Origin: Actinomycetes bacterium | GTDB lineage: Bacteria; Actinomycetota; Acidimicrobiia; Acidimicrobiales; Ilumatobacteraceae | Reading direction: 5' to 3' | DNA: 52,371 nt | NCBI GenBank assembly: GCA_031423915.1 | Contig: JANPGL010000268.1 | Coordinates: 1-52,371 of the forward strand | Program-made: the position numbers and the translations under genes | In this document: positions 29,051 to 37,128 of the stretch, piece after piece | How the letters are laid out: every line of letters starts with the position of its first letter | Numbering within the stretch: the first letter of the stretch is position 1 | The notes under the pieces: generated by a model | Databases searched by the model: none | Told to the model about the DNA's origin: nothing | What the model saw: only the letters and a program-made list of their open reading frames with translations

Positions 29051-29503
29051 ATGCGGTTCCGCACCACCATCGCCGCCGGCGGCAAGAACGCCACCGGCAT
29101 CCCGATCCCGCCCGACGTGCTCGACGCGCTCGCCGCCGGCAGGCGGCCGGCCGTTCGGCTCACGGTCGCGGGCTACACCTACCGCACGACGCTCGGCTCG
29201 ATGGGCGGCCAGGTGCTGGCACCGCTCAGCGCCGAGCACCGCACGGCGGCCGGCGTCGCGGCCGGCGACGAGGTCGACGTCGACATCGAGGTCGACGCCG
29301 CGCCGCGCACGGTGGAGGCGCCCGCCGACCTGGCGGCCGCGCTCGCCGGCGACCACGCCGCCCTGACCACCTTCGATGCGCTCGCCCCGAGCCACCGCAA
29401 GGAGTACGTGCGCTGGATCGAGGAGGCCAAGAAGGCCGAGACGCGCGCCGGCCGGGTGGCGAAAGCCGTCGAGGCGCTGCGGGCCGGCAAGAACCGCTAC
29501 TGA
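29051..29503 (+). CDS. DUF1905 + YdeI/OmpD-associated domain protein
   Basis: MRFRTTIAAGGKNATGIPIPPDV... followed by SHRKEYVRWIEEAKKAETRAGRVAKAVEAL. Confidence 0.7.
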   Translation: MRFRTTIAAGGKNATGIPIPPDVLDALAAGRRPAVRLTVAGYTYRTTLGSMGGQVLAPLSAEHRTAAGVAAGDEVDVDIEVDAAPRTVEAPADLAAALAGDHAALTTFDALAPSHRKEYVRWIEEAKKAETRAGRVAKAVEALRAGKNRY

Positions 29504-30060
29504 CCAGCCGTCGAGCGGCGACGAGCCGGGGCCGCTCGTGCTCCGACGACCGCCTCGGCATCGTCCGTCCCCTCGTCCGTCGAAGTATCCCGAGCTGGGA
29601 CGGCGACGGCCTTCGACGGCAGCCGGAACAGCGTCAGCGCGAGGAGGAGCACCGCCACTGCTCCCGAGCTCGCCAGGGCGTCCACCGGATCGTCGATGGC
29701 CACGAGCCGCTCGACACTCTTGATCGCCACGAACACCACGAGGGAGTCCACGAGCCGGCTCTTCAGGTCGTCGAACGAGCGGGCAACGAGCCACTGGGGC
29801 ACGTCGAGATCGCCGACGAACAACTCGTACAACCCGATGGCGATGATCACCTGGACGACGGCGAGCAGGTAGCCCTCGATGACCACGAGCAACTGAACGA
29901 TCGACCCGTCGTCCTCCCACCCGCCGCCGAGGAGATCGGCCACGAGCTTCACCGTCTTCGCCACCGCCCAGCCGGAGGTGACCACCGACGTGAAGGCCAG
30001 GCCGATCACGCCGACGACGGCGAGAAGCGGTGCTCGGTCGAGAATGCGCTTGACGGCCAC
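29497..30060 (-). CDS. YqhA (UPF0114)-like membrane protein
   Basis: GTG 30060 gives VAVKRILDRAPLLAVVGVIGLAF... with about 4 TM segments and an acidic tail. It lies 7 nt downstream of the zinc-ribbon gene stop. Family call is from memory. Confidence 0.5.
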   Translation of the reverse strand: MAVKRILDRAPLLAVVGVIGLAFTSVVTSGWAVAKTVKLVADLLGGGWEDDGSIVQLLVVIEGYLLAVVQVIIAIGLYELFVGDLDVPQWLVARSFDDLKSRLVDSLVVFVAIKSVERLVAIDDPVDALASSGAVAVLLLALTLFRLPSKAVAVPARDTSTDEGTDDAEAVVGARAAPARRRSTAGQ

Positions 30061-30067
30061 GGCGCGC

Positions 30068-30382
30068 TCAGAAGTCGAACAGCTCGCCGAGGAGCGACTT
30101 GCGCTTCTTCGGTTTGCCGTACCGGTCGCCGCCGTAGCGGCGATCGTCGTCATCGTCGTCATCGTCGTCATCGCGGAACGCCGGCGCCGGCGCCGGGTAC
30201 GACGACGGCCCGGGCCGGGCCGGCGCGGCGACGGAGCGGTCGGCGACGGCCATGCGGTCGATGATCTTGTCGAGCTCACCGCGGTCGAGCCACACGCCAC
30301 GGCACGTGGGGCAGTAGTCGATCTCGACTCCCGTGCGGTCCGCCATGACGAGCGTGGCATCGGGGCAGGCGGGGCACTTCAT
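30068..30382 (-). CDS. TFIIB-type zinc-ribbon protein with a poly-Asp tract
   Basis: MKCPACPDATLVMADRTGVEIDYCPTCRGVWLDRGELDKII has CxxC...CxxC. It is followed by DDDDDDDDD, encoded by (ATCGTCGTC)x3 at 30143-30169, and a KPKKRKSLLGELFDF tail. ATGA overlap with the ATPase stop. Confidence 0.75.
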   Translation of the reverse strand: MKCPACPDATLVMADRTGVEIDYCPTCRGVWLDRGELDKIIDRMAVADRSVAAPARPGPSSYPAPAPAFRDDDDDDDDDDRRYGGDRYGKPKKRKSLLGELFDF

Positions 30383-33159
30383 CGGGAAACCTCCGGGGTA
30401 CGGGCACGTAGGACGAGCTTGCGCAGCTCCTCGATCCACAGCACGCTCGACGCCACCAGGGCGCACACCGCCCACTGCGCCGGCGTGATCGAGGTCGTGG
30501 CGAACAGCCGCTGGAGCGGGCCCACGTGGGTGACGGCGACCTGCAGCACGAGCACCGAGCCGAGCGACACCCACAACCACCGGTTGCGGAGGCTGTCGCG
30601 GTGGAACACGCTCGTGCGGTCGCTGCGCACGTTCAGCAGGTTGAAGAACTGGAACAGGACGAACGTGGTGAACGCCATCGTCCCGGCCACCGTGGGGGTG
30701 CCACCCGGAAGTGCCTCGCCGGGGGCCCACGCCAACACGGCGAGCGTTCCGGCCGCCATGGTCACGGCGGCGACGCCGATGGCGGCCCGGCGCCGTCCGG
30801 TGACGATCTTCTCTTCGACCGGCCGAGGAGCGCGGCTCATCACGTCCGACGACGACGGGTCGAGACCGAGCGCCATCGCCGGAGGACCGTCCATCACGAG
30901 GTTGACCCACAGGATGGCGATGGCGGCGAAGGGCTTGCCATCGGCGAGCCCGAACAGCGCCGCCAGCAGGAACACGACGGCGAACCCGATCGTCGTCGAG
31001 AGCTGGAAGCGCACGAACTTCACGACGTTGTCGTAGATGGTGCGCCCGCGACGCACGGCGCCGACGATCGTGGCGAAGTTGTCGTCGGCGAGGACCATCG
31101 ACGCCGCCTGTTTCGTCACTTCGGTACCGGTGATGCCCATGGCCACGCCGATGTCGGCGCGCTTGAGTGCCGGGGCGTCGTTCACGCCGTCGCCGGTCAT
31201 GGCCACGACGTTGCCTCGATGCTGCAGGGCGGCGACGAGCCGCAGCTTGTGCTCCGGCGAGACGCGGGCGAACACGCCCACGTCATCCAGGCGACCGCCG
31301 AGTGCGTCGTCGTCGAGCGCGTCGAGCTCGGCCCCGGTCATCGCCGCGCCGGGCAGGCCGAGCGACCGGGCGATCGACGTCGCGGTCGTCACGTGGTCGC
31401 CGGTGATCATCTTCACCGAGAGTCCCGCGGCGTGCGCCTCGGCGATCGCCTGGCGCACCTCCGCCCGGGGAGGGTCGAGCAGGCCCACGAGACCGAGCAC
31501 CGTGAGGCCCCCGGTCAGCGCCGCCAGCTCCAGCTCCCCCCGCTCGAGGCGGGCGATCTCGTCGGCGTCGAGGTCACGCGAGGCCACCGCCAGCACCCGC
31601 AACCCACGCCCCGCCATCTCCTCCATCGCCGTGTCGATGCGCTGGCGCCCGGCCGCGACCGGGACGGTGCCTCCTCCCACCAGCACGCTGTCGGCCCGGG
31701 CGAGCAGCACGTCGGGTGCACCCTTCACATAGGCCCGTACGACGTCGACGCCACCGCCGGTGACGCGGTGAGCCGTGGCCATCAGCTTCGTGGCCGACTC
31801 GAACGGCGCCTCGGCAAGCCGCGGGTGACGGGCCCGGAGCGAGCCGAGGTCGACGCCACCCTTGGCGGCGAGCACGAGGAGCGCCGTCTCGGTGGGATCG
31901 CCGGTGTGGTGCCAGCGCTCGCCATCGTGGCGCAGTGCGGCGTCGTTGCAGAGGACGACGGCCGCGAGCACCTCCTCGACCGCGGGATCCGCATGACCGG
32001 CGGACTCGCCGCACACCGCCTCGATCACCCCGCGCGGCTCGTAGCCCGTGCCGCTCACCCGGTGGAGGCGGCCGCCGGCGACGAGCTCGACGGCGGTCAT
32101 CTCGTTCATCGTGAGCGTGCCGGTCTTGTCGGAGCAGATCACGGTGGTCGATCCGAGCGTCTCGACCGAGGCCAGGCGCTTCACGATGGCGTTGGACTCG
32201 GCCATCCTGGCGACACCGATGGCGAGCGTGACCACGGTGACGGCGGGGAGGCCCTCGGGGATGGCGGCCACGGCGAGGGCCACGCCGGTGAGCAGCATGT
32301 CGCTCAGACTCGAACCGCGGACCAGACCGATCACGACCACGGCGGCGACGATGACGGCGGCGAGCTTGGCCAGGCCGTGGGCGAGCTCGTCGAGCTGGCG
32401 TTGCAGCGGCGTGCGCTCCGTCGTGGTGGTGGCGAGCAGCCCGGCGATGCGGCCGATCTCGGTGCGCATGCCCGTGGCGGTCACGACGAGCTCACCGCGC
32501 CCCCGGGTGACGCTCGTGTGCATGTGGGCCATGCAGGCGCGATCGCCGATGCCGACCGTGGCGTCCGGCGAGGCGACGACCAGCCCGGTGGCCTTGGCCG
32601 TCGGCACGCTCTCGCCGGTGAGGACCGACTCGTCGACCTCGAGGCTGCTGGCGACGACCAGCCGGCCATCTGCAGGGATGCGGTCGCCCGCCTCGACGAG
32701 CACGACGTCGCCGGGCACCAGGTCGTCGGCCGCCACCACGTGCACGTCGCCGCCACGGCGGACGCGGGCCTGATGGACGGCCATCTGCTGGAGCGCCTCC
32801 AGGGACCGTTCCGCCCGCTGCTCCTGCACGAACCCGATGACCGCATTGAGCAGCACGACGGTGAGGACCACGATCGGCGTCTTGAGCTCGCCCGACACGA
32901 AGAAGGCGACCGTGGCGGCCGCGAGCAGCACCAGGATCAGCCGGTCGGTGAACTGGGCGGCGAGCCGCCGCCAGGCGGGAACGGGCGGCGTGCCGTCGAG
33001 CGCGTTGGCGCCGAACGAGGCGAGTCGGCCCGCCGCCTCTGCGTGGCCAAGGCCGGAGGCGGGGTCGACGTCGAGCGCGGCGGAGACGTCGTCGACGTCG
33101 AGCCGGTGCGGCGCGTCTACGGCCAGGGCGACGGCGCGGCGTGGGTGGTGAGCGAGCAT
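30379..33159 (-). CDS. P2-type cation-transporting P-type ATPase (Ca2+/Mn2+-ATPase-like)
   Basis: TGES (LTGESVP), PEGLP in TM4 (AIPEGLPAV), DKTGTLT, MITGDH, and GDGVNDAPALK. ATG 33159 has GAAGGA 8 nt upstream. The 29 extra codons of the ORF upstream overlap the regulatory leader. Confidence 0.93.
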   Translation of the reverse strand: MLAHHPRRAVALAVDAPHRLDVDDVSAALDVDPASGLGHAEAAGRLASFGANALDGTPPVPAWRRLAAQFTDRLILVLLAAATVAFFVSGELKTPIVVLTVVLLNAVIGFVQEQRAERSLEALQQMAVHQARVRRGGDVHVVAADDLVPGDVVLVEAGDRIPADGRLVVASSLEVDESVLTGESVPTAKATGLVVASPDATVGIGDRACMAHMHTSVTRGRGELVVTATGMRTEIGRIAGLLATTTTERTPLQRQLDELAHGLAKLAAVIVAAVVVIGLVRGSSLSDMLLTGVALAVAAIPEGLPAVTVVTLAIGVARMAESNAIVKRLASVETLGSTTVICSDKTGTLTMNEMTAVELVAGGRLHRVSGTGYEPRGVIEAVCGESAGHADPAVEEVLAAVVLCNDAALRHDGERWHHTGDPTETALLVLAAKGGVDLGSLRARHPRLAEAPFESATKLMATAHRVTGGGVDVVRAYVKGAPDVLLARADSVLVGGGTVPVAAGRQRIDTAMEEMAGRGLRVLAVASRDLDADEIARLERGELELAALTGGLTVLGLVGLLDPPRAEVRQAIAEAHAAGLSVKMITGDHVTTATSIARSLGLPGAAMTGAELDALDDDALGGRLDDVGVFARVSPEHKLRLVAALQHRGNVVAMTGDGVNDAPALKRADIGVAMGITGTEVTKQAASMVLADDNFATIVGAVRRGRTIYDNVVKFVRFQLSTTIGFAVVFLLAALFGLADGKPFAAIAILWVNLVMDGPPAMALGLDPSSSDVMSRAPRPVEEKIVTGRRRAAIGVAAVTMAAGTLAVLAWAPGEALPGGTPTVAGTMAFTTFVLFQFFNLLNVRSDRTSVFHRDSLRNRWLWVSLGSVLVLQVAVTHVGPLQRLFATTSITPAQWAVCALVASSVLWIEELRKLVLRARTPEVSR

Positions 33160-33165
33160 GGGGAC

Positions 33166-33280
33166 GTTCCTTCGATGACGGTGGGTCGATCGAAGGTCTC
33201 TCCCAGCCCCGGAGGGCCTCGCACACCGGACCCCGAGGGTCGTCATGACGGCGGTGCGACGCAGGGATACTCCCCTTCGC
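33166..33280 (-). promoter_or_regulatory. Riboswitch-like leader, copy A (yybP-ykoY/Mn2+-type signature) with SD-sequestering hairpin, upstream of the P-type ATPase
   Basis: Sense (minus) reads GCGAAGGGGAGUAUCCC, then 59 nt, then GGGAGAGACCUUCGAUcgacccaccgucAUCGAAGGAAC, then 6 nt, then AUG. CGAAGG/CCUUCG can close a P1 helix. CCUUCGAU can alternatively pair with AUCGAAGG, which contains the SD. Confidence 0.6.
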
Positions 33281-33365
33281 TGACCACCTTACGGAACGGC
33301 GGCTCCGATGACAACCTTTACTAGATTTGCCTTGCAGGTGATTGTCTGTCGTCGTACCGTGACGG

Positions 33366-33479
33366 GCGAAGGGGAGTATCCCGACACGGTGCTATCGCCA
33401 GCACGGACCTCACGGTCCCGGTAGCCCGGCTCCACGGAGCGGGAGAGACCTTCGATCGACCCACCGTCATCGAAGGAAC
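33366..33479 (+). promoter_or_regulatory. Riboswitch-like leader, copy B (same signature) upstream of the eRF1-like gene
   Basis: GCGAAGGGGAGUAUCCC (33366-33382), then 58 nt, then GGGAGAGACCUUCGAUcgacccaccgucAUCGAAGGAAC (33441-33479), then 5 nt, then GUG 33485. The boxes are 17/17 and 39/39 identical to copy A. Confidence 0.6.
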
Positions 33480-33484
33480 CCACC

Positions 33485-34504
33485 GTGAACCGTGCCCTGC
33501 TCGCCGACCTCCAGCAGCGTCGCTGCTACCCGAGCGTCACCATCCTGCTCAACACCACGCCCGCGCCCGCGATGGCGGCCGACGACCGTCTCACGGCACT
33601 GCGGTTGGTGGAGAAGGCCGATCGGCGTCTTGCCGACGACGTGGACGGTGCGATCCGCACCGCGCTCGTCCTGAAGCTGACCGAGCTCGTGGCGGAGCAG
33701 GCGTCTCGCCGGACGACGATCGCCCTCGCCGTGTGCGTGTCGCCGGAGCACTCGGCCGTCGTCCCGCTCGGTCGGCCCGTCGACGCTCGCGTCGTCATCG
33801 ACGACACGTTCGCCACGCGGGACCTGGTCGCCGACCTCAATCGCACGGCGCTCTACCGCGTGGTCACGATCAGCGACCGTCGGGTACGCCTGTTCGTGGG
33901 CGACCGTCAGCGGCTGGTGGAGGAGCGCACGCCGTCGTGGCCGCTCGAGCGGACGGAGGACCAGAACCACGGCGCGTGGATGCGCCACGTGATCGCCCGC
34001 CTCGCCGCCGAGGAGGTGACCCATCCCCTGCCGACCGTGTTCGCTGGGGTCGATCGCACGGTGCGCCACCTCCTCACCGCCGACAGCGCGGGCACCGTCG
34101 GTGTCATCGGAGGCAACCACGACCGCACGTCCCACGTGCAGCTCCACCACGCCGCATGGCCACTCGTGACCGACTGGCTCCGCGGCGACCGGGACCGGGC
34201 GCTCGCCCGGCTCGACGAGGCCCGCTCGGCCCGACGGTACGCCAGCGGCATCGACGAGATGTGGGCGCTGGCCAACGACGGCCGCGTCGAGCTCGTCGTC
34301 GCCGAGGAGGGCTACCGCGTGGCGGCGCGGCTGGGCGACCACCACCAGCTCGTTCCCGCGGACGACGCCGAGGCCCCCGACGTCGTCGACGACGTGGTCG
34401 ACGACACCATCGAGCACGTGCTGCGCTGCGGTGGCGAAGCGGTGCTCGTGCCCGACGGCGACCTGTCCGCCCACGGGCGGATCGCCGGCATCCTGCGGTA
34501 CTGA
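33485..34504 (+). CDS. Conserved hypothetical protein, eRF1-like (bacterial baeRF-type release-factor-like family)
   Basis: The N-terminus LLADLQQRRCYPSVTILLNTTP and the C-terminus DDVVDDTIEHVLRCGGEAVLVPDGDLSAHGRIAGILRY resemble the baeRF families as I recall them. No GGQ motif is seen. Needs HMM confirmation. Confidence 0.45.
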   Translation: MNRALLADLQQRRCYPSVTILLNTTPAPAMAADDRLTALRLVEKADRRLADDVDGAIRTALVLKLTELVAEQASRRTTIALAVCVSPEHSAVVPLGRPVDARVVIDDTFATRDLVADLNRTALYRVVTISDRRVRLFVGDRQRLVEERTPSWPLERTEDQNHGAWMRHVIARLAAEEVTHPLPTVFAGVDRTVRHLLTADSAGTVGVIGGNHDRTSHVQLHHAAWPLVTDWLRGDRDRALARLDEARSARRYASGIDEMWALANDGRVELVVAEEGYRVAARLGDHHQLVPADDAEAPDVVDDVVDDTIEHVLRCGGEAVLVPDGDLSAHGRIAGILRY

Positions 34505-34505
34505 C

Positions 34506-34904
34506 CTACCCAGCCCCGGCGTCGATCTCGGCGAAGACGGATTCGGCCACCTCGACCGACGACAGGCACACCGGGAACCCGGCGTACGGGATCATGTGCA
34601 CGAAGACCTCGAGCACCTCCCGGCGGGTGAAGCCCTGGTCGAGTGCCCCCTTGATGTGCACCTTGAGCAGCGTCGGCCGGCCCAGCGCAGCGATGGTGGT
34701 CATCGTGATGATGCGCCGGGTCTTGTAGTCGAGCGCGTCGCGCGCCCACACGTCGCCGAAGCAGAACTCGCCGAGCATGCGGTCGAGGTCGGGACCGACG
34801 ACCGGGTCGACGCGCTGCCAGCGCTGGAGGCCGGCACCGCTGCCGCCGGTCTCCTCCAGCACGCGCACGCCGGCTTCGTACCGGTCGGAATCGAACTCGA
34901 TCAT
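34506..34904 (-). CDS. Carboxymuconolactone decarboxylase (CMD/AhpD-like) family protein
   Basis: FCFGDVWARDALDYKTRRIITMTTIAALGR...EVFVHMIPYAGFP is typical of the CMD domain. ATGA overlap with the aminotransferase stop. Confidence 0.8.
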   Translation of the reverse strand: MIEFDSDRYEAGVRVLEETGGSGAGLQRWQRVDPVVGPDLDRMLGEFCFGDVWARDALDYKTRRIITMTTIAALGRPTLLKVHIKGALDQGFTRREVLEVFVHMIPYAGFPVCLSSVEVAESVFAEIDAGAG

Positions 34905-36301
34905 CGGGCTCCCCAGGGTCGGACGGCCGTGGCCGGACGCGTCAGGTGCGGCGGTGCGGGCGCACCGGCCGACGACGTGGCGGCATCGACGATCGACAGC
35001 CCCTCGTCGAGCACGCCGAGCGCCCAGTCGAGCTGATCGGTGGTGACGACCAGCGGTGGGTTGGCGAACAGGTAGCTGCCGCGCAGGTTGGCCAGCAGCC
35101 CCTTCGATGTCAGGAACGCTCGCAGCTCGCCCGCAGCGGGCCCGGTGGGGCCGACGATGGGGAACAGCTCGGCGCGCGTCTCGCGGTCGTGGACCAGCTC
35201 CATCACGGAGAACAGGCCGACGCCGCGCACGTCACCCACGCACGGGTGGCGCTCCTGCAGGGACCGCAGACCGGCGACCAGGTAGTCGCCCATCTTGGCC
35301 GAGTTCTCGATCAGCCCGTCGCTCTCGTAGATGCCCATCACGCACTTGGCGGCCGCCAGGCCGACCGCATGCGCCTGGTACGTGAGGCCGGAGCCGAACG
35401 GAACCTCGTCGATGGCCGCGGCCACGGCGTCGGACAGCACGCAGGCGCCCACCGGCAGGTAGCCGCTCGTGATGCCCTTGGCCACGGTCATGATGTCGGG
35501 GCTGACGCCCTCGTGGTCGACGGCGAACCACCGACCGGTGCGGCCGAAGCCGCTCATCACCTCGTCGCAGATCAACAGGATGCCGTGGTGGTCGCACAGC
35601 GCCCGCAGGCCGGCGAGCCAGCCGGCAGGCGGCACGATGAGCCCGTTCGAGCCGGTGACCGGCTCGACCATGATCGCCGCGATGGTGTGCGGCCCCTCCA
35701 GCTCGATGATCTGGTCCAGCTGGGCCAGATGGAAGTCACGGAACTCGGCGGCGTCCTCGATCCACGGGAACCGGTAGTGGTACGGATCGGGGATGCGCAC
35801 GATGTCGCCGACGCCACCTTCCACCGGATAGCGGCGCGGGTCGCCCGACGCGGCCAGCACCCCGGTGGTGGACCCGTGGTACGAGCGGTAGCGGGTCAGG
35901 ATCTTGCGCCGCCCCGTCACCAGCCGTGCCGTGCGGATGGCGGCCTCGTTGGCGTCGGCGCCGGCGAGCGTGAAGAACGCCTTGGTCATGCCCGCCGGGG
36001 TGAGGCGGGCGAGCATCTCGCCCACCTCCGCCCGGATCTCGGTGACCATGAACGGCGACACGAACGCCACCTTGGCCATCTGCTCGGCCACGGCGGCCGT
36101 CACGCGCTGGTCGCCGTGGCCGATGTTCACGCACATGGCGATGGAGTTGAAGTCCATGTACCGCGTGCCGTCACGCCCGTAGAGGTAGACGCCCTCGCCA
36201 CGTTCGATGCAGAGCGGGTCGACGTGCTGGTTGCCCCACTCGAACACCGTGTACGTCTTGGCCCGATCGACGATGGTCGCCGCGTCGGTGGTCACGCTCA
36301 T
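34901..36301 (-). CDS. Class-III (omega) aminotransferase, beta-alanine/taurine-pyruvate type
   Basis: MSVTTDAATIV...; AGADANEAAIR; LICDEVMSGFGRTGRWFA; PLP-lysine context DIMTVAKGITSGY. ATGA overlap on both sides. Confidence 0.9.
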   Translation of the reverse strand: MSVTTDAATIVDRAKTYTVFEWGNQHVDPLCIERGEGVYLYGRDGTRYMDFNSIAMCVNIGHGDQRVTAAVAEQMAKVAFVSPFMVTEIRAEVGEMLARLTPAGMTKAFFTLAGADANEAAIRTARLVTGRRKILTRYRSYHGSTTGVLAASGDPRRYPVEGGVGDIVRIPDPYHYRFPWIEDAAEFRDFHLAQLDQIIELEGPHTIAAIMVEPVTGSNGLIVPPAGWLAGLRALCDHHGILLICDEVMSGFGRTGRWFAVDHEGVSPDIMTVAKGITSGYLPVGACVLSDAVAAAIDEVPFGSGLTYQAHAVGLAAAKCVMGIYESDGLIENSAKMGDYLVAGLRSLQERHPCVGDVRGVGLFSVMELVHDRETRAELFPIVGPTGPAAGELRAFLTSKGLLANLRGSYLFANPPLVVTTDQLDWALGVLDEGLSIVDAATSSAGAPAPPHLTRPATAVRPWGAR

Positions 36302-37128
36302 GGCGCTCCCAACGCGGCGTACGTCTCGGGCCGCCGATCGCGCCACACCGGCAGCTGCAACCGGGCAGCCCGCAAGGCATCCAGGTCGAGGTCGGCCATC
36401 ACCACCTCCTCGGTGTTGCCGCCCTCGGACAGGATCTCGCCGTCGTAGTCGCAGAAGTAGCTGTGGCCGTAGAAGTCGTTCGGCCCCAGCGCCTCGAGGC
36501 CCACGCGGTTGTTGGTCCCCACGTAGTACCGGTTGGCGATGGCGTGCGCCCGCTGCTCCACGTGCCACGTCCGGTACGAGTGCCCGGACGTGGCCGACGG
36601 GATGAACACGATCTCGGCCCCGGCGAGCCCGAGGGCGCGTGCGCCCTCGGGGAAGCGCCGGTCGTAGCAGATGTACACGCCGATCCGGGCGAACCGCGTC
36701 TGGAACACAGGGAAGCCCAGGTTTCCCGGCTTGAAGTAGAACTTCTCGAAGAAGAACTCGCTCTGCGGGATGTGGGTCTTGCGGTACTTGCCCAGGTAGC
36801 TGCCGTCGGCGTCGATGACCGCGGCGGTGTTGTAGTAGGTGCCCATGTCGTCCTCGAACAGCGGGACCACGAGCACCACACCGAGCTCGGCTGCGAGGTC
36901 CGACATCGCCTTCACCGACGGTCCGTCGGGGATCGGCTCGGCGAGGTCGAACCACTCGGACGTCTCCACCTGGCAGAAGTACGGGCCGCTGGCCAGCTCC
37001 TGCAGACAGATGATCTGGGCACCACCGGCGGCCGCCTGACGCACGAGCGTGGCCTGGTGGTCGAGCATCGCCTCGCGGGGCGAGATGCCGTTGGTCTGGA
37101 TGAGCGCACAACGCACGTTGGCCGTCAT
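36298..37128 (-). CDS. Carbon-nitrogen hydrolase (beta-ureidopropionase / N-carbamoyl-amide amidohydrolase-like)
   Basis: Glu-Lys-Cys triad contexts are ICLQELA, YRKTHIP and VYICYDRRFPE. EKFYFKPGNLGFPVF is also present. Confidence 0.88.
   Translation of the reverse strand: MTANVRCALIQTNGISPREAMLDHQATLVRQAAAGGAQIICLQELASGPYFCQVETSEWFDLAEPIPDGPSVKAMSDLAAELGVVLVVPLFEDDMGTYYNTAAVIDADGSYLGKYRKTHIPQSEFFFEKFYFKPGNLGFPVFQTRFARIGVYICYDRRFPEGARALGLAGAEIVFIPSATSGHSYRTWHVEQRAHAIANRYYVGTNNRVGLEALGPNDFYGHSYFCDYDGEILSEGGNTEEVVMADLDLDALRAARLQLPVWRDRRPETYAALGAP

Follow-up and report, generated by a model that had tools for sequence, protein, structure and literature searches.

A putative metal riboswitch precedes a Balon-family gene in Acidimicrobiia and related Actinomycetota

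Introduction

Why should a soluble protein that resembles a ribosome factor be encoded behind the same kind of leader RNA as a cation-pumping ATPase? The question is raised by a 52,371-nt stretch of DNA from an Actinomycetes bacterium of the Ilumatobacteraceae (assembly GCA_031423915.1, contig JANPGL010000268.1, positions 1 to 52,371; hereafter the window). Here, two divergent copies of a leader lie between a P-type ATPase gene (leader A) and a gene for a 339-amino-acid (aa) protein (leader B). A first-pass annotation, made from the sequence alone, had described the protein as eRF1-like (baeRF-like) and as the sole cargo of a yybP-ykoY-type metal riboswitch. It had proposed a candidate for an undescribed system, in which divalent-metal excess is linked to translation or ribosome rescue or the fold has a different function.

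The analysis reported here suggests that metal overload is wired to the shutdown of protein synthesis through a riboswitch-controlled homologue of Balon. Balon (AOC03_06830 of Psychrobacter urativorans) was described by Helena-Bueno et al. (Nature 2024; PMC10901736) as a ribosome hibernation factor. It fills the A site of vacant or translating ribosomes together with EF-Tu-GDP and holds the peptidyl-transferase centre in an inert state (PMC10901736). Factors of this type became known only in 2024, and riboswitch control of one would provide hibernation with a defined input signal, a metal ion. Both parts of the proposed system, a Balon/baeRF-1 protein and a yybP-ykoY riboswitch, are known, and it is their combination that is apparently undescribed.

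Results and discussion

The 339-aa protein belongs to the family of Balon

The 339-aa protein matches the Pfam family baeRF_family3 (PF18845) with 73.9 bits against a cut-off of 31.5 (E 2.5e-20), and this domain is present in all 120 homologues among the matches listed. We utilised AlphaFold2 to predict its structure on the basis of 32 homologues (predicted local distance difference test score 85.5) and compared the model with solved structures using Foldseek. The top five matches were ribosome-bound Balon and Msmeg1130, with template modelling (TM) scores of 0.64–0.71. P. urativorans Balon (8rdw_B, 8rdv_B, 8rd8_B) was matched with E values of 1e-24 to 7e-26 and TM scores of 0.70–0.71 (8rdw_B: E 7e-26, TM 0.70), and the mycobacterial Balon homologues Msmeg1130 of M. 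smegmatis (8v9j_z) and Rv2629 of M. tuberculosis (8v9k_z) with TM scores of 0.67 and 0.59, respectively. Matches to aRF1 (4af1; E 6e-16) and to eRF1 and Pelota (E 1e-14 to 1e-9) had much lower TM scores than those to Balon. The model predicts an aeRF1-like three-domain fold, in line with the original description of the protein as eRF1-like.

On the sequence level, the profile of the family aligns with Balon over both halves (E 2.2e-32). The NCBIfam model NF052287 ('AOC03_06830 family ribosome hibernation factor') scores 194.6 bits (E 3e-57), which is under its equivalog cut-off of 330. P. urativorans Balon, when rebuilt from the profile alignment, also belongs to baeRF_family3.

The protein and Balon further share the lack of the GGQ and NIKS motifs, neither of which was found in the 339-aa sequence. 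The position of the GGQ loop is occupied in the model by a loop at about residues 147–161 (ERTPSWPLERTEDQNHG), which precedes a helix at 162–179. The assignment of EDQNHGAWMRH as the equivalent region was therefore about right. Across the 32 homologues, no glutamine is conserved in this loop, and this includes the glutamine of 'EDQN'. A β-hairpin of the C-domain, formed by model strands 281–283 and 289–291, aligns with the putative counterpart in Balon, the EF-Tu-binding insert YIQAAKVDEDAQTLTMADA. The charge is also Balon-like, as the protein is acidic overall and its C-domain is acidic. A divergent, Gln-less catalytic loop and a two-strand insert in the Pelota-like domain are likewise features of the baeRF-1 clade of the aeRF1 superfamily, to which the protein belongs and for which Burroughs and Aravind (2019) predicted non-catalytic blocking of the ribosome (PMC6514570).

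Judged by sequence and predicted fold, the protein is clearly a full-length homologue of Balon and thus a member of the family of a ribosome hibernation factor. As far as the protein is concerned, the system can hence no longer be called undescribed (PMC10901736). Since the family is that of Balon, for which ribosome complexes have been solved, hibernation is likelier than the rescue or release that had been envisaged. An active peptidyl-tRNA hydrolase or rescue factor of the eRF1/Dom34 type, induced by metal stress, would have the same superfamily fold and would explain the matches to aRF1, eRF1 and Pelota (E 1e-16 to 1e-9); rescue roles have indeed been proposed for baeRF-1 proteins (PMC6514570). 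However, the absence of GGQ and NIKS, the loop without a conserved glutamine and the fact that the closest solved relatives (Balon, Msmeg1130 and Rv2629) leave the peptidyl-transferase centre inert (PMC10901736) render this activity very improbable.

The leader resembles the yybP-ykoY aptamer

To characterise the leader, 80 loci encoding relatives of the 339-aa protein were fetched, mostly from metagenome-assembled genomes of Acidimicrobiia. A simple sequence pattern revealed 48 leader copies in these loci and the window. An alignment of 38 copies (A2) folds into a conserved structure consisting of P1.1, P1.2, an extended P3.1, P3.2 and P4, in which 92.9% of cells are paired and 19 of the 27 pairs show compensatory changes. 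None of 500 shuffles equalled this result, and pairing falls to 33–55% when the partners are slid. Columns G7–G12, A14, C35–A36 and G81–C86 are invariant in all 38 copies. In P1.1, GAAGG/CCUUC covaries to GGAGG/CCUCC, and the Shine-Dalgarno sequence is altered in step.

A covariance model (R1) made from the leader alignment was run over the 863 kb of the window and the 80 protein-anchored loci and detected 51 copies with E<1e-3. When 6 kb around E. coli mntP were searched with filters off, R1 gave a single significant match (17.1 bits, E 0.002), which was exactly the yybP-ykoY aptamer. L1 (GGGGAGUA), P1.2, P3.1, the GUCA of L3, P3.2, P4 and GAGACC are in register between the two RNAs, with the P2 hairpin of E. 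coli forming an insertion. At this site, 38 copies have just a linker of 5–10 nt, and six (L021, L025–L027, L053 and L061) carry a hairpin insertion. The invariant adenine of L3 (position 33400 of the window) aligns with A41, the Mn2+-coordinating adenine of solved yybP-ykoY aptamers (PMC11672702).

Leader B illustrates this architecture. In P1.1, G33368–G33372 pair with C33449–C33453, L1 lies at 33371–33378, the GAGAGACC signature at 33443–33450, and L3 (CCAGCAC) holds the invariant adenine. With the RF00080 class, whose members include E. coli mntP and alx, L. lactis yoaB, S. pneumoniae mgtA and C. glutamicum terC, the leader shares L1 opposite GAGACC, P1.1/P1.2, the P3.1-L3 (GUCA...AC)-P3.2 arrangement, the P4 hairpin, the logic of an ON switch and a regulon of TerC and P2-type ATPases. 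Judging by its sequence, the leader behaves as a yybP-ykoY riboswitch variant for Mn2+, possibly also Ca2+, which usually lacks P2.

Two alternative readings of this region were discarded. A pairing suggested by RNAalifold (columns 9–10/16–17 and 72–73/95–96) was replaced by P1.2 (UCCC/GGGA), which shows U-A to C-G covariation and matches GCC/GGC of E. coli. The mycobacterial Balon Rv2629 is induced by hypoxia, which had prompted the idea of a DNA operator (DosR-type or other) within the palindrome formed by the two leaders of the window. This was dropped because the leaders are mostly single and covary as RNA.

The leader has the architecture of a translational ON switch

In leader B, a hairpin CCUUCGAU...AUCGAAGG (33449–33476) places the 3' strand of P1.1 on the Shine-Dalgarno sequence GAAGGA (33472–33477), which is located 7–8 nt before the GTG start codon at 33485. 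The unconstrained minimum-free-energy fold of 33365–33495 includes this Shine-Dalgarno-hiding (OFF) hairpin. The alternative pairing is a general property of the leader: in all of the 48 copies analysed, the 3' strand of P1.1, which reads CCUUC or, in a subtype with covariation, CCUCC, is predicted to fold onto the Shine-Dalgarno sequence instead, and three copies outside this count display the same pattern by eye. The Shine-Dalgarno-like sequences (GAAGG, GAAAGG or CAGGAG) are found 2–13 nt before the start codon, and 5–13 nt before it in all but one of the 48 copies. Because the 3' strand of P1.1 can pair alternatively with the Shine-Dalgarno sequence, the leader is built like a translational ON switch. 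A search of leader B for an intrinsic terminator found none, and control by transcription termination was rejected since a terminator-like site was lacking.

Leader A, the paralogous copy on the opposite strand, precedes the ATPase gene, with its Shine-Dalgarno sequence at 33168–33173 (TCCTTC on the plus strand) before the ATPase ATG at 33159–33157. The two genes therefore do stand behind copies of the same riboswitch-like leader, as had been proposed. A perfect inverted repeat of 39 nt (33166–33204 / 33441–33479; 100% complementary), ending 5 nt before GTG 33485, is the common 3' part of the two divergent copies.

The pairing of leader and baeRF3 gene is old and maintained

The 80 protein-anchored loci comprise 44 with a leader, 12 actinobacterial-type loci without one, 13 distant loci without one and 11 that were not assessable. 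The leader thus lies upstream of, and on the same strand as, the gene for the baeRF_family3 protein (baeRF3) in 44 of the 56 assessable actinobacterial loci. As this pairing is seen across 39–68% identity of the protein and with no fewer than two subtypes of the aptamer, it is old and maintained and not an accident of the window genome.

This conservation also bears on the possibility that leader B, having arisen by duplication of the ATPase leader, has no function, or that it is a DNA palindrome or operator, and that the gene lies behind it by accident. The perfect 39-nt inverted repeat between the two copies of the window would be accounted for in this way. Yet the leader precedes baeRF3 operons in 44 loci, mostly without a second copy, compensatory base changes favour an RNA structure, and sequestration of the Shine-Dalgarno sequence is kept in every one of the 48 copies. 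The aptamer middles of A and B moreover differ, each matching its own orthologous lineage. We disfavour this explanation and give it hardly any weight.

In the window itself, the 39 nt shared by the leaders consist of the 3' strand of P1 and the entire expression platform, which are 100% identical, whereas the aptamer cores differ. The platforms differ between the divergent leaders of L009, L013, L018, L019 and L035. The identity of A and B over this segment, while platforms differ in other genomes, suggests that gene conversion has recently taken place between the two inverted copies of the window genome.

The organisation of the 44 leader loci is variable. In 19, the leader stands directly before baeRF3, as in the window. 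In 17, a PGPGW (PF09656) gene of about 160 aa is inserted between the two, usually with an overlapping ATGA, and three contain a decayed PGPGW remnant at this position. The other five are larger operons with TerC-HtpX-PGPGW, HtpX-ATPase-PGPGW, HtpX alone (two loci) or an ATPase-PGPGW fusion (L022). Consequently, the description of the 339-aa protein as sole cargo applies to the window but not to the 25 of the 44 leader loci in which PGPGW (intact or decayed) and/or HtpX, TerC or an ATPase precede the baeRF gene.

Conserved adjacency to the ATPase was rejected, as a P-type ATPase is found nearby in only about 10 of the 80 loci. A divergent ATPase with its own leader nonetheless recurs at L009, L013, L018, L019 and L035. 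The ATPase link is real but facultative. Of the neighbourhood whose conservation the first-pass annotation had singled out for checking, the leader is thus kept in most assessable actinobacterial homologues and the ATPase only in a minority.

Several further observations concern PGPGW and the loci without a leader. The PGPGW membrane protein (L002:5516-6004 and about 17 other loci) is translationally coupled to baeRF3, and its C-terminal half weakly resembles the Rv2743c family, with a Pfam score below the threshold. No PGPGW gene is present in the window. In L009, L011, L018, L019 and L027, the PGPGW frame between leader and baeRF3 is frameshifted or truncated, which could reflect decay towards the direct leader-baeRF3 arrangement or assembly errors. 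L016 (3100-3300) and L017 (5300-5470) combine PGPGW-baeRF3 with an apparent platform remnant (…CGATCTACGAGTCCATCGAAAGG) and have lost the aptamer, suggesting that riboswitch control was replaced by another promoter or regulator.

Near the distant family-3 homologues of other phyla, neither leader nor PGPGW was found, and their neighbours are heterogeneous, including histidine kinases, a Na+/H+ exchanger, NfeD and a different P-type ATPase. A histidine kinase is encoded directly upstream of the family-3 homologue in L072 and L076. In L070 and L073 (Anaerolineaceae and Ignavibacteriales), without a leader, baeRF3 adjoins a different P-type ATPase or a Na+/H+ exchanger with TrkA_C, a sample too small for a trend.

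The regulon of the leader consists mainly of TerC and P-type ATPases

Metagenomes were scanned for the leader independently of the protein, using the signature GGGGAGTA N55-85 GRGAGACCTYC, and the scan was stopped at 120 contigs with 122 leaders. The first genes were classed by tblastn, which replaced automatic calling of open reading frames because many high-GC genes had been mis-framed. The first gene encodes TerC behind 53 of the 122 leaders and a P-type ATPase behind 13. M50-CBS peptidases and DksA/TraR zinc-finger proteins follow with five each, HtpX (M48) with four, Na_Ca_ex antiporters and Zn-ribbon (Zn_ribbon_TFIIB) proteins with three each, baeRF3 with two and PGPGW with one. A further 28 were unclassified and five were too short to classify. 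Altogether, baeRF3 occurs in six operons of this set.

TerC and P2-type ATPases are classical cargo of yybP-ykoY elements, as exemplified by terC of C. glutamicum (PMC3890552) and the P2A ATPase mgtA of S. pneumoniae, whose element responds to Ca2+ too (PMC11672702). The regulon therefore fits the assignment of the leader to this class. Within such a regulon, otherwise mostly TerC and P-type ATPases, the baeRF gene is an unusual cargo, as the first-pass annotation had recognised. The non-transporter cargo of the metagenomic leaders L082-L201 (DksA/TraR, M50-CBS, HtpX and Zn_ribbon_TFIIB) is also unusual for a metal riboswitch.

A proposed model for metal-triggered ribosome hibernation

We consider it probable, if by no wide measure, that translational ON riboswitches of a P2-less yybP-ykoY variant drive both an efflux ATPase and a Balon-family gene under metal overload. 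Without ligand, CCUUCGAU would be paired with AUCGAAGG and the Shine-Dalgarno sequence hidden. Upon stabilisation by a cation, the aptamer would fold and take CCUUC into P1.1, so that the Shine-Dalgarno sequence is freed and translation can start. Excess Mn2+, possibly also Ca2+, would in this manner stabilise both aptamers and open the ribosome-binding sites of the ATPase and the Balon-like gene, inducing the efflux pump and the Balon-like protein in parallel. By homology with Balon, the protein would then occupy the ribosomal A site with EF-Tu-GDP, and ribosomes would be parked and protected without release of the peptide. We infer that the ligand is a metal ion of this kind, that this baeRF3 subfamily binds ribosomes and that its physiological purpose is to limit translation while Mn2+ or Ca2+ is in excess. 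Mn2+ degrades decoding fidelity in vitro, which offers a plausible rationale for metal-triggered hibernation, and a riboswitch acts faster than transcriptional control.

A number of observations weigh against this model or set the protein apart from Balon. The leader is absent at the 12 actinobacterial-type orthologues, which have enough upstream DNA, and at all 13 assessable distant homologues (30–39% identity, other phyla). The 339-aa protein falls short of the equivalog cut-off of the hibernation-factor family (194.6 versus 330 bits) and shares only 22–23% identity with Balon. In the aligned decoding-centre loop, NTTPG stands opposite THREHP of Balon and the 'HP' motif is not recognisable, while GNHDR and WPxxR, which are invariant in the subfamily, are absent from P. 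urativorans Balon. The genomic contexts differ as well. Whereas the gene for the 339-aa protein and its relatives are associated with a metal-riboswitch leader, a PGPGW membrane protein and a P-type ATPase, reported Balon operons contain RaiA, Hsp20, OsmC, HdeD, EmrB or RtcB (PMC10901736). Moreover, the coupling of PGPGW to baeRF3 through overlapping ATGA and its fusion to an ATPase in one locus could indicate a membrane-linked role.

On the RNA side, most leader copies lack P2 and would form a three-way junction, in contrast to the four-way junction of the solved Mn2+ aptamers, from which they could for this reason deviate in metal selectivity. RF00080 of Rfam 15 gave no match to the window leader or to that of L021, either at the gathering threshold or at E<=10, even in pieces of 106–171 nt. 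On the control, E. coli mntP (L081:2464-2573, K-12 5' untranslated region), it reaches 44.9 bits (gathering score 45). Rfam likewise made no yybP-ykoY call when the entire window, 11 loci and short segments of leaders were scanned. Since the control shows this test to be weak and R1 links both RNAs, we do not take the missing call as absence. Thus, the yybP-ykoY assignment of the first-pass annotation holds in that R1 finds the mntP aptamer and the regulon fits, but the RF00080 model fails and P2 is mostly missing. The control also shows that a default Rfam 15 scan misses the textbook E. coli mntP Mn2+ riboswitch (44.9 < 45). The RF00080 alignment of mntP leaves the 5' strand of P1 unpaired and places a long insertion in P4.

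Could the leader be a related but distinct aptamer that responds to Ca2+, some other cation, pH or the like instead of Mn2+, through a P2-less junction of altered specificity? The missing RF00080 match and the absence of P2 from most copies point in this direction, as do the PMR1/SERCA-like Ca2+-type ATPases and Na_Ca_ex antiporters among the cargo and the additional Ca2+ response of the S. pneumoniae element (PMC11672702). L1 and GAGACC, however, are identical to those of the Mn2+ class, the adenine of the L3 'YCA' is invariant and aligned to the E. coli GUCA, and TerC dominates the regulon as it does in known Mn2+ riboswitches. We regard a distinct specificity as doubtful, although worth keeping in view.

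The main rival to our model retains the riboswitch control but assumes that the baeRF3 subfamily was recruited to a membrane-linked task with PGPGW and the ATPase rather than to general hibernation. The protein might then serve as a transporter regulator, chaperone or tether, or it might join HtpX in controlling the quality of membrane-protein synthesis. In line with this hypothesis, PGPGW lies between leader and baeRF in about 20 loci with stop/start overlap (ATGA), it is fused to the C-terminus of a P-type ATPase in L022 (L022:2705-6004), and these operons and the regulon also include the membrane proteases HtpX and M50. The invariants missing from Balon and the lack of a recognisable HP motif would also be explained. 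Against it stands the full-length homology in sequence and fold to ribosome-bound Balon. In addition, 19 loci and the window have the leader directly before baeRF without PGPGW, and the protein can therefore work without this partner. The two roles are moreover compatible, as hibernation could be membrane-tethered. On balance, a membrane-linked role in place of general hibernation seems unlikely to us.

Returning to metal-triggered hibernation, a wider version of the model is conceivable, which we put forward only tentatively and would not call probable. A Mn2+/Ca2+ riboswitch without P2 would, in the Acidimicrobiia and other Actinomycetota related to them, directly gate hibernation by switching on the Balon-family A-site blocker along with efflux systems (TerC, PMR1-like ATPase) and, in other operons, DksA/TraR-like proteins and membrane proteases, such that cation overload puts a coordinated brake on both translation and transcription. 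The co-translated PGPGW would act as a membrane partner or tether of the Balon-like factor.

The literature searched contained no paper linking yybP-ykoY with Balon, eRF1 or PGPGW. The supplements of the Balon paper gave no match for P-type, TerC, PGPGW or riboswitch (PMC10901736), and the baeRF-1 study stressed an association with HPF/YfiA, its main text being without a linkage to a riboswitch, P-type ATPase or PGPGW (PMC6514570). Three elements hence appear to be undescribed: riboswitch control of a hibernation-factor homologue, a P2-less aptamer that Rfam misses and the link to PGPGW. Judged by the literature searched, this would be the first case of a hibernation factor under riboswitch control, and to the membrane exporters of the Mn2+ riboswitch regulon it would add a soluble translation factor. 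The leader differs from described yybP-ykoY elements in its lack of an RF00080 match, in being mostly P2-less and in a control that would be purely translational, via Shine-Dalgarno sequestration. Its regulon reaches beyond theirs to a Balon homologue, DksA/TraR zinc-finger proteins and M48 and M50 proteases. Current Rfam searches would miss this variant in high-GC Actinomycetota. Finally, PGPGW, an uncharacterised membrane family, emerges as a candidate partner of both a P2-type ATPase and a Balon homologue.

Gene layout of the window

The features of the locus are summarised in Table 1. The start codon, the length of the protein, the distance from the leader end to the GTG and the convergent orientation of the next gene are all as initially annotated. 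The N-terminus VNRALLADLQ agrees with the MNRALLAELQ start of more than 100 homologues of 337–340 aa, and GTG 33485 is therefore the right start codon. As the downstream gene is convergent, the 339-aa gene is monocistronic in the window.

Table 1. Genes and leader elements around the Balon-family gene, in window coordinates.
Feature	Position	Strand	Remarks
UPF0114 (YqhA-like) membrane protein gene	29497-30360	-	begins 18 nt past the ATPase stop
Cation P-type ATPase gene, P2A-type (PMR1/SERCA-like)	30379-33159	-	926 aa; cargo of leader A
Leader A expression platform	33160-33204	-	same as leader B over 39 nt (33166-33204)
Leader A aptamer	33190-33281	-	R1 78.1 bits, E 1e-17; 'ATPase type', GUCAUGAC in L3
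Leader B aptamer	33365-33455	+	R1 94.9 bits, E 3e-22; yybP-ykoY-like without P2
Leader B expression platform	33449-33484	+	hairpin 33449-33476 covering the Shine-Dalgarno sequence
baeRF_family3 gene	33485-34504	+	GTG start, 339 aa
CMD-family (carboxymuconolactone-decarboxylase) gene	34506-34904	-	Pfam; convergent neighbour of the 339-aa gene
Longest open reading frame of the next region	34901-37111	-	736 aa; class-III aminotransferase domain at residues 297-702 only

The ATPase contains the Pfam domains Cation_ATPase_N, Cation_ATPase_C and E1-E2_ATPase. Its top NCBIfam model is TIGR01522 (PMR1-type Ca ATPase) with 726 bits, under the cut-off of 798, and by sequence its closest counterparts are Ca2+(/Mn2+) pumps of the PMR1 and SERCA types. 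The UPF0114 gene on the same strand may be a second cargo of leader A.

Beyond the convergent CMD gene, the longest open reading frame overlaps the stop of the CMD gene region. Its N-terminal extension of about 290 aa, which precedes the aminotransferase domain, may represent an over-called start or an unrecognised domain.

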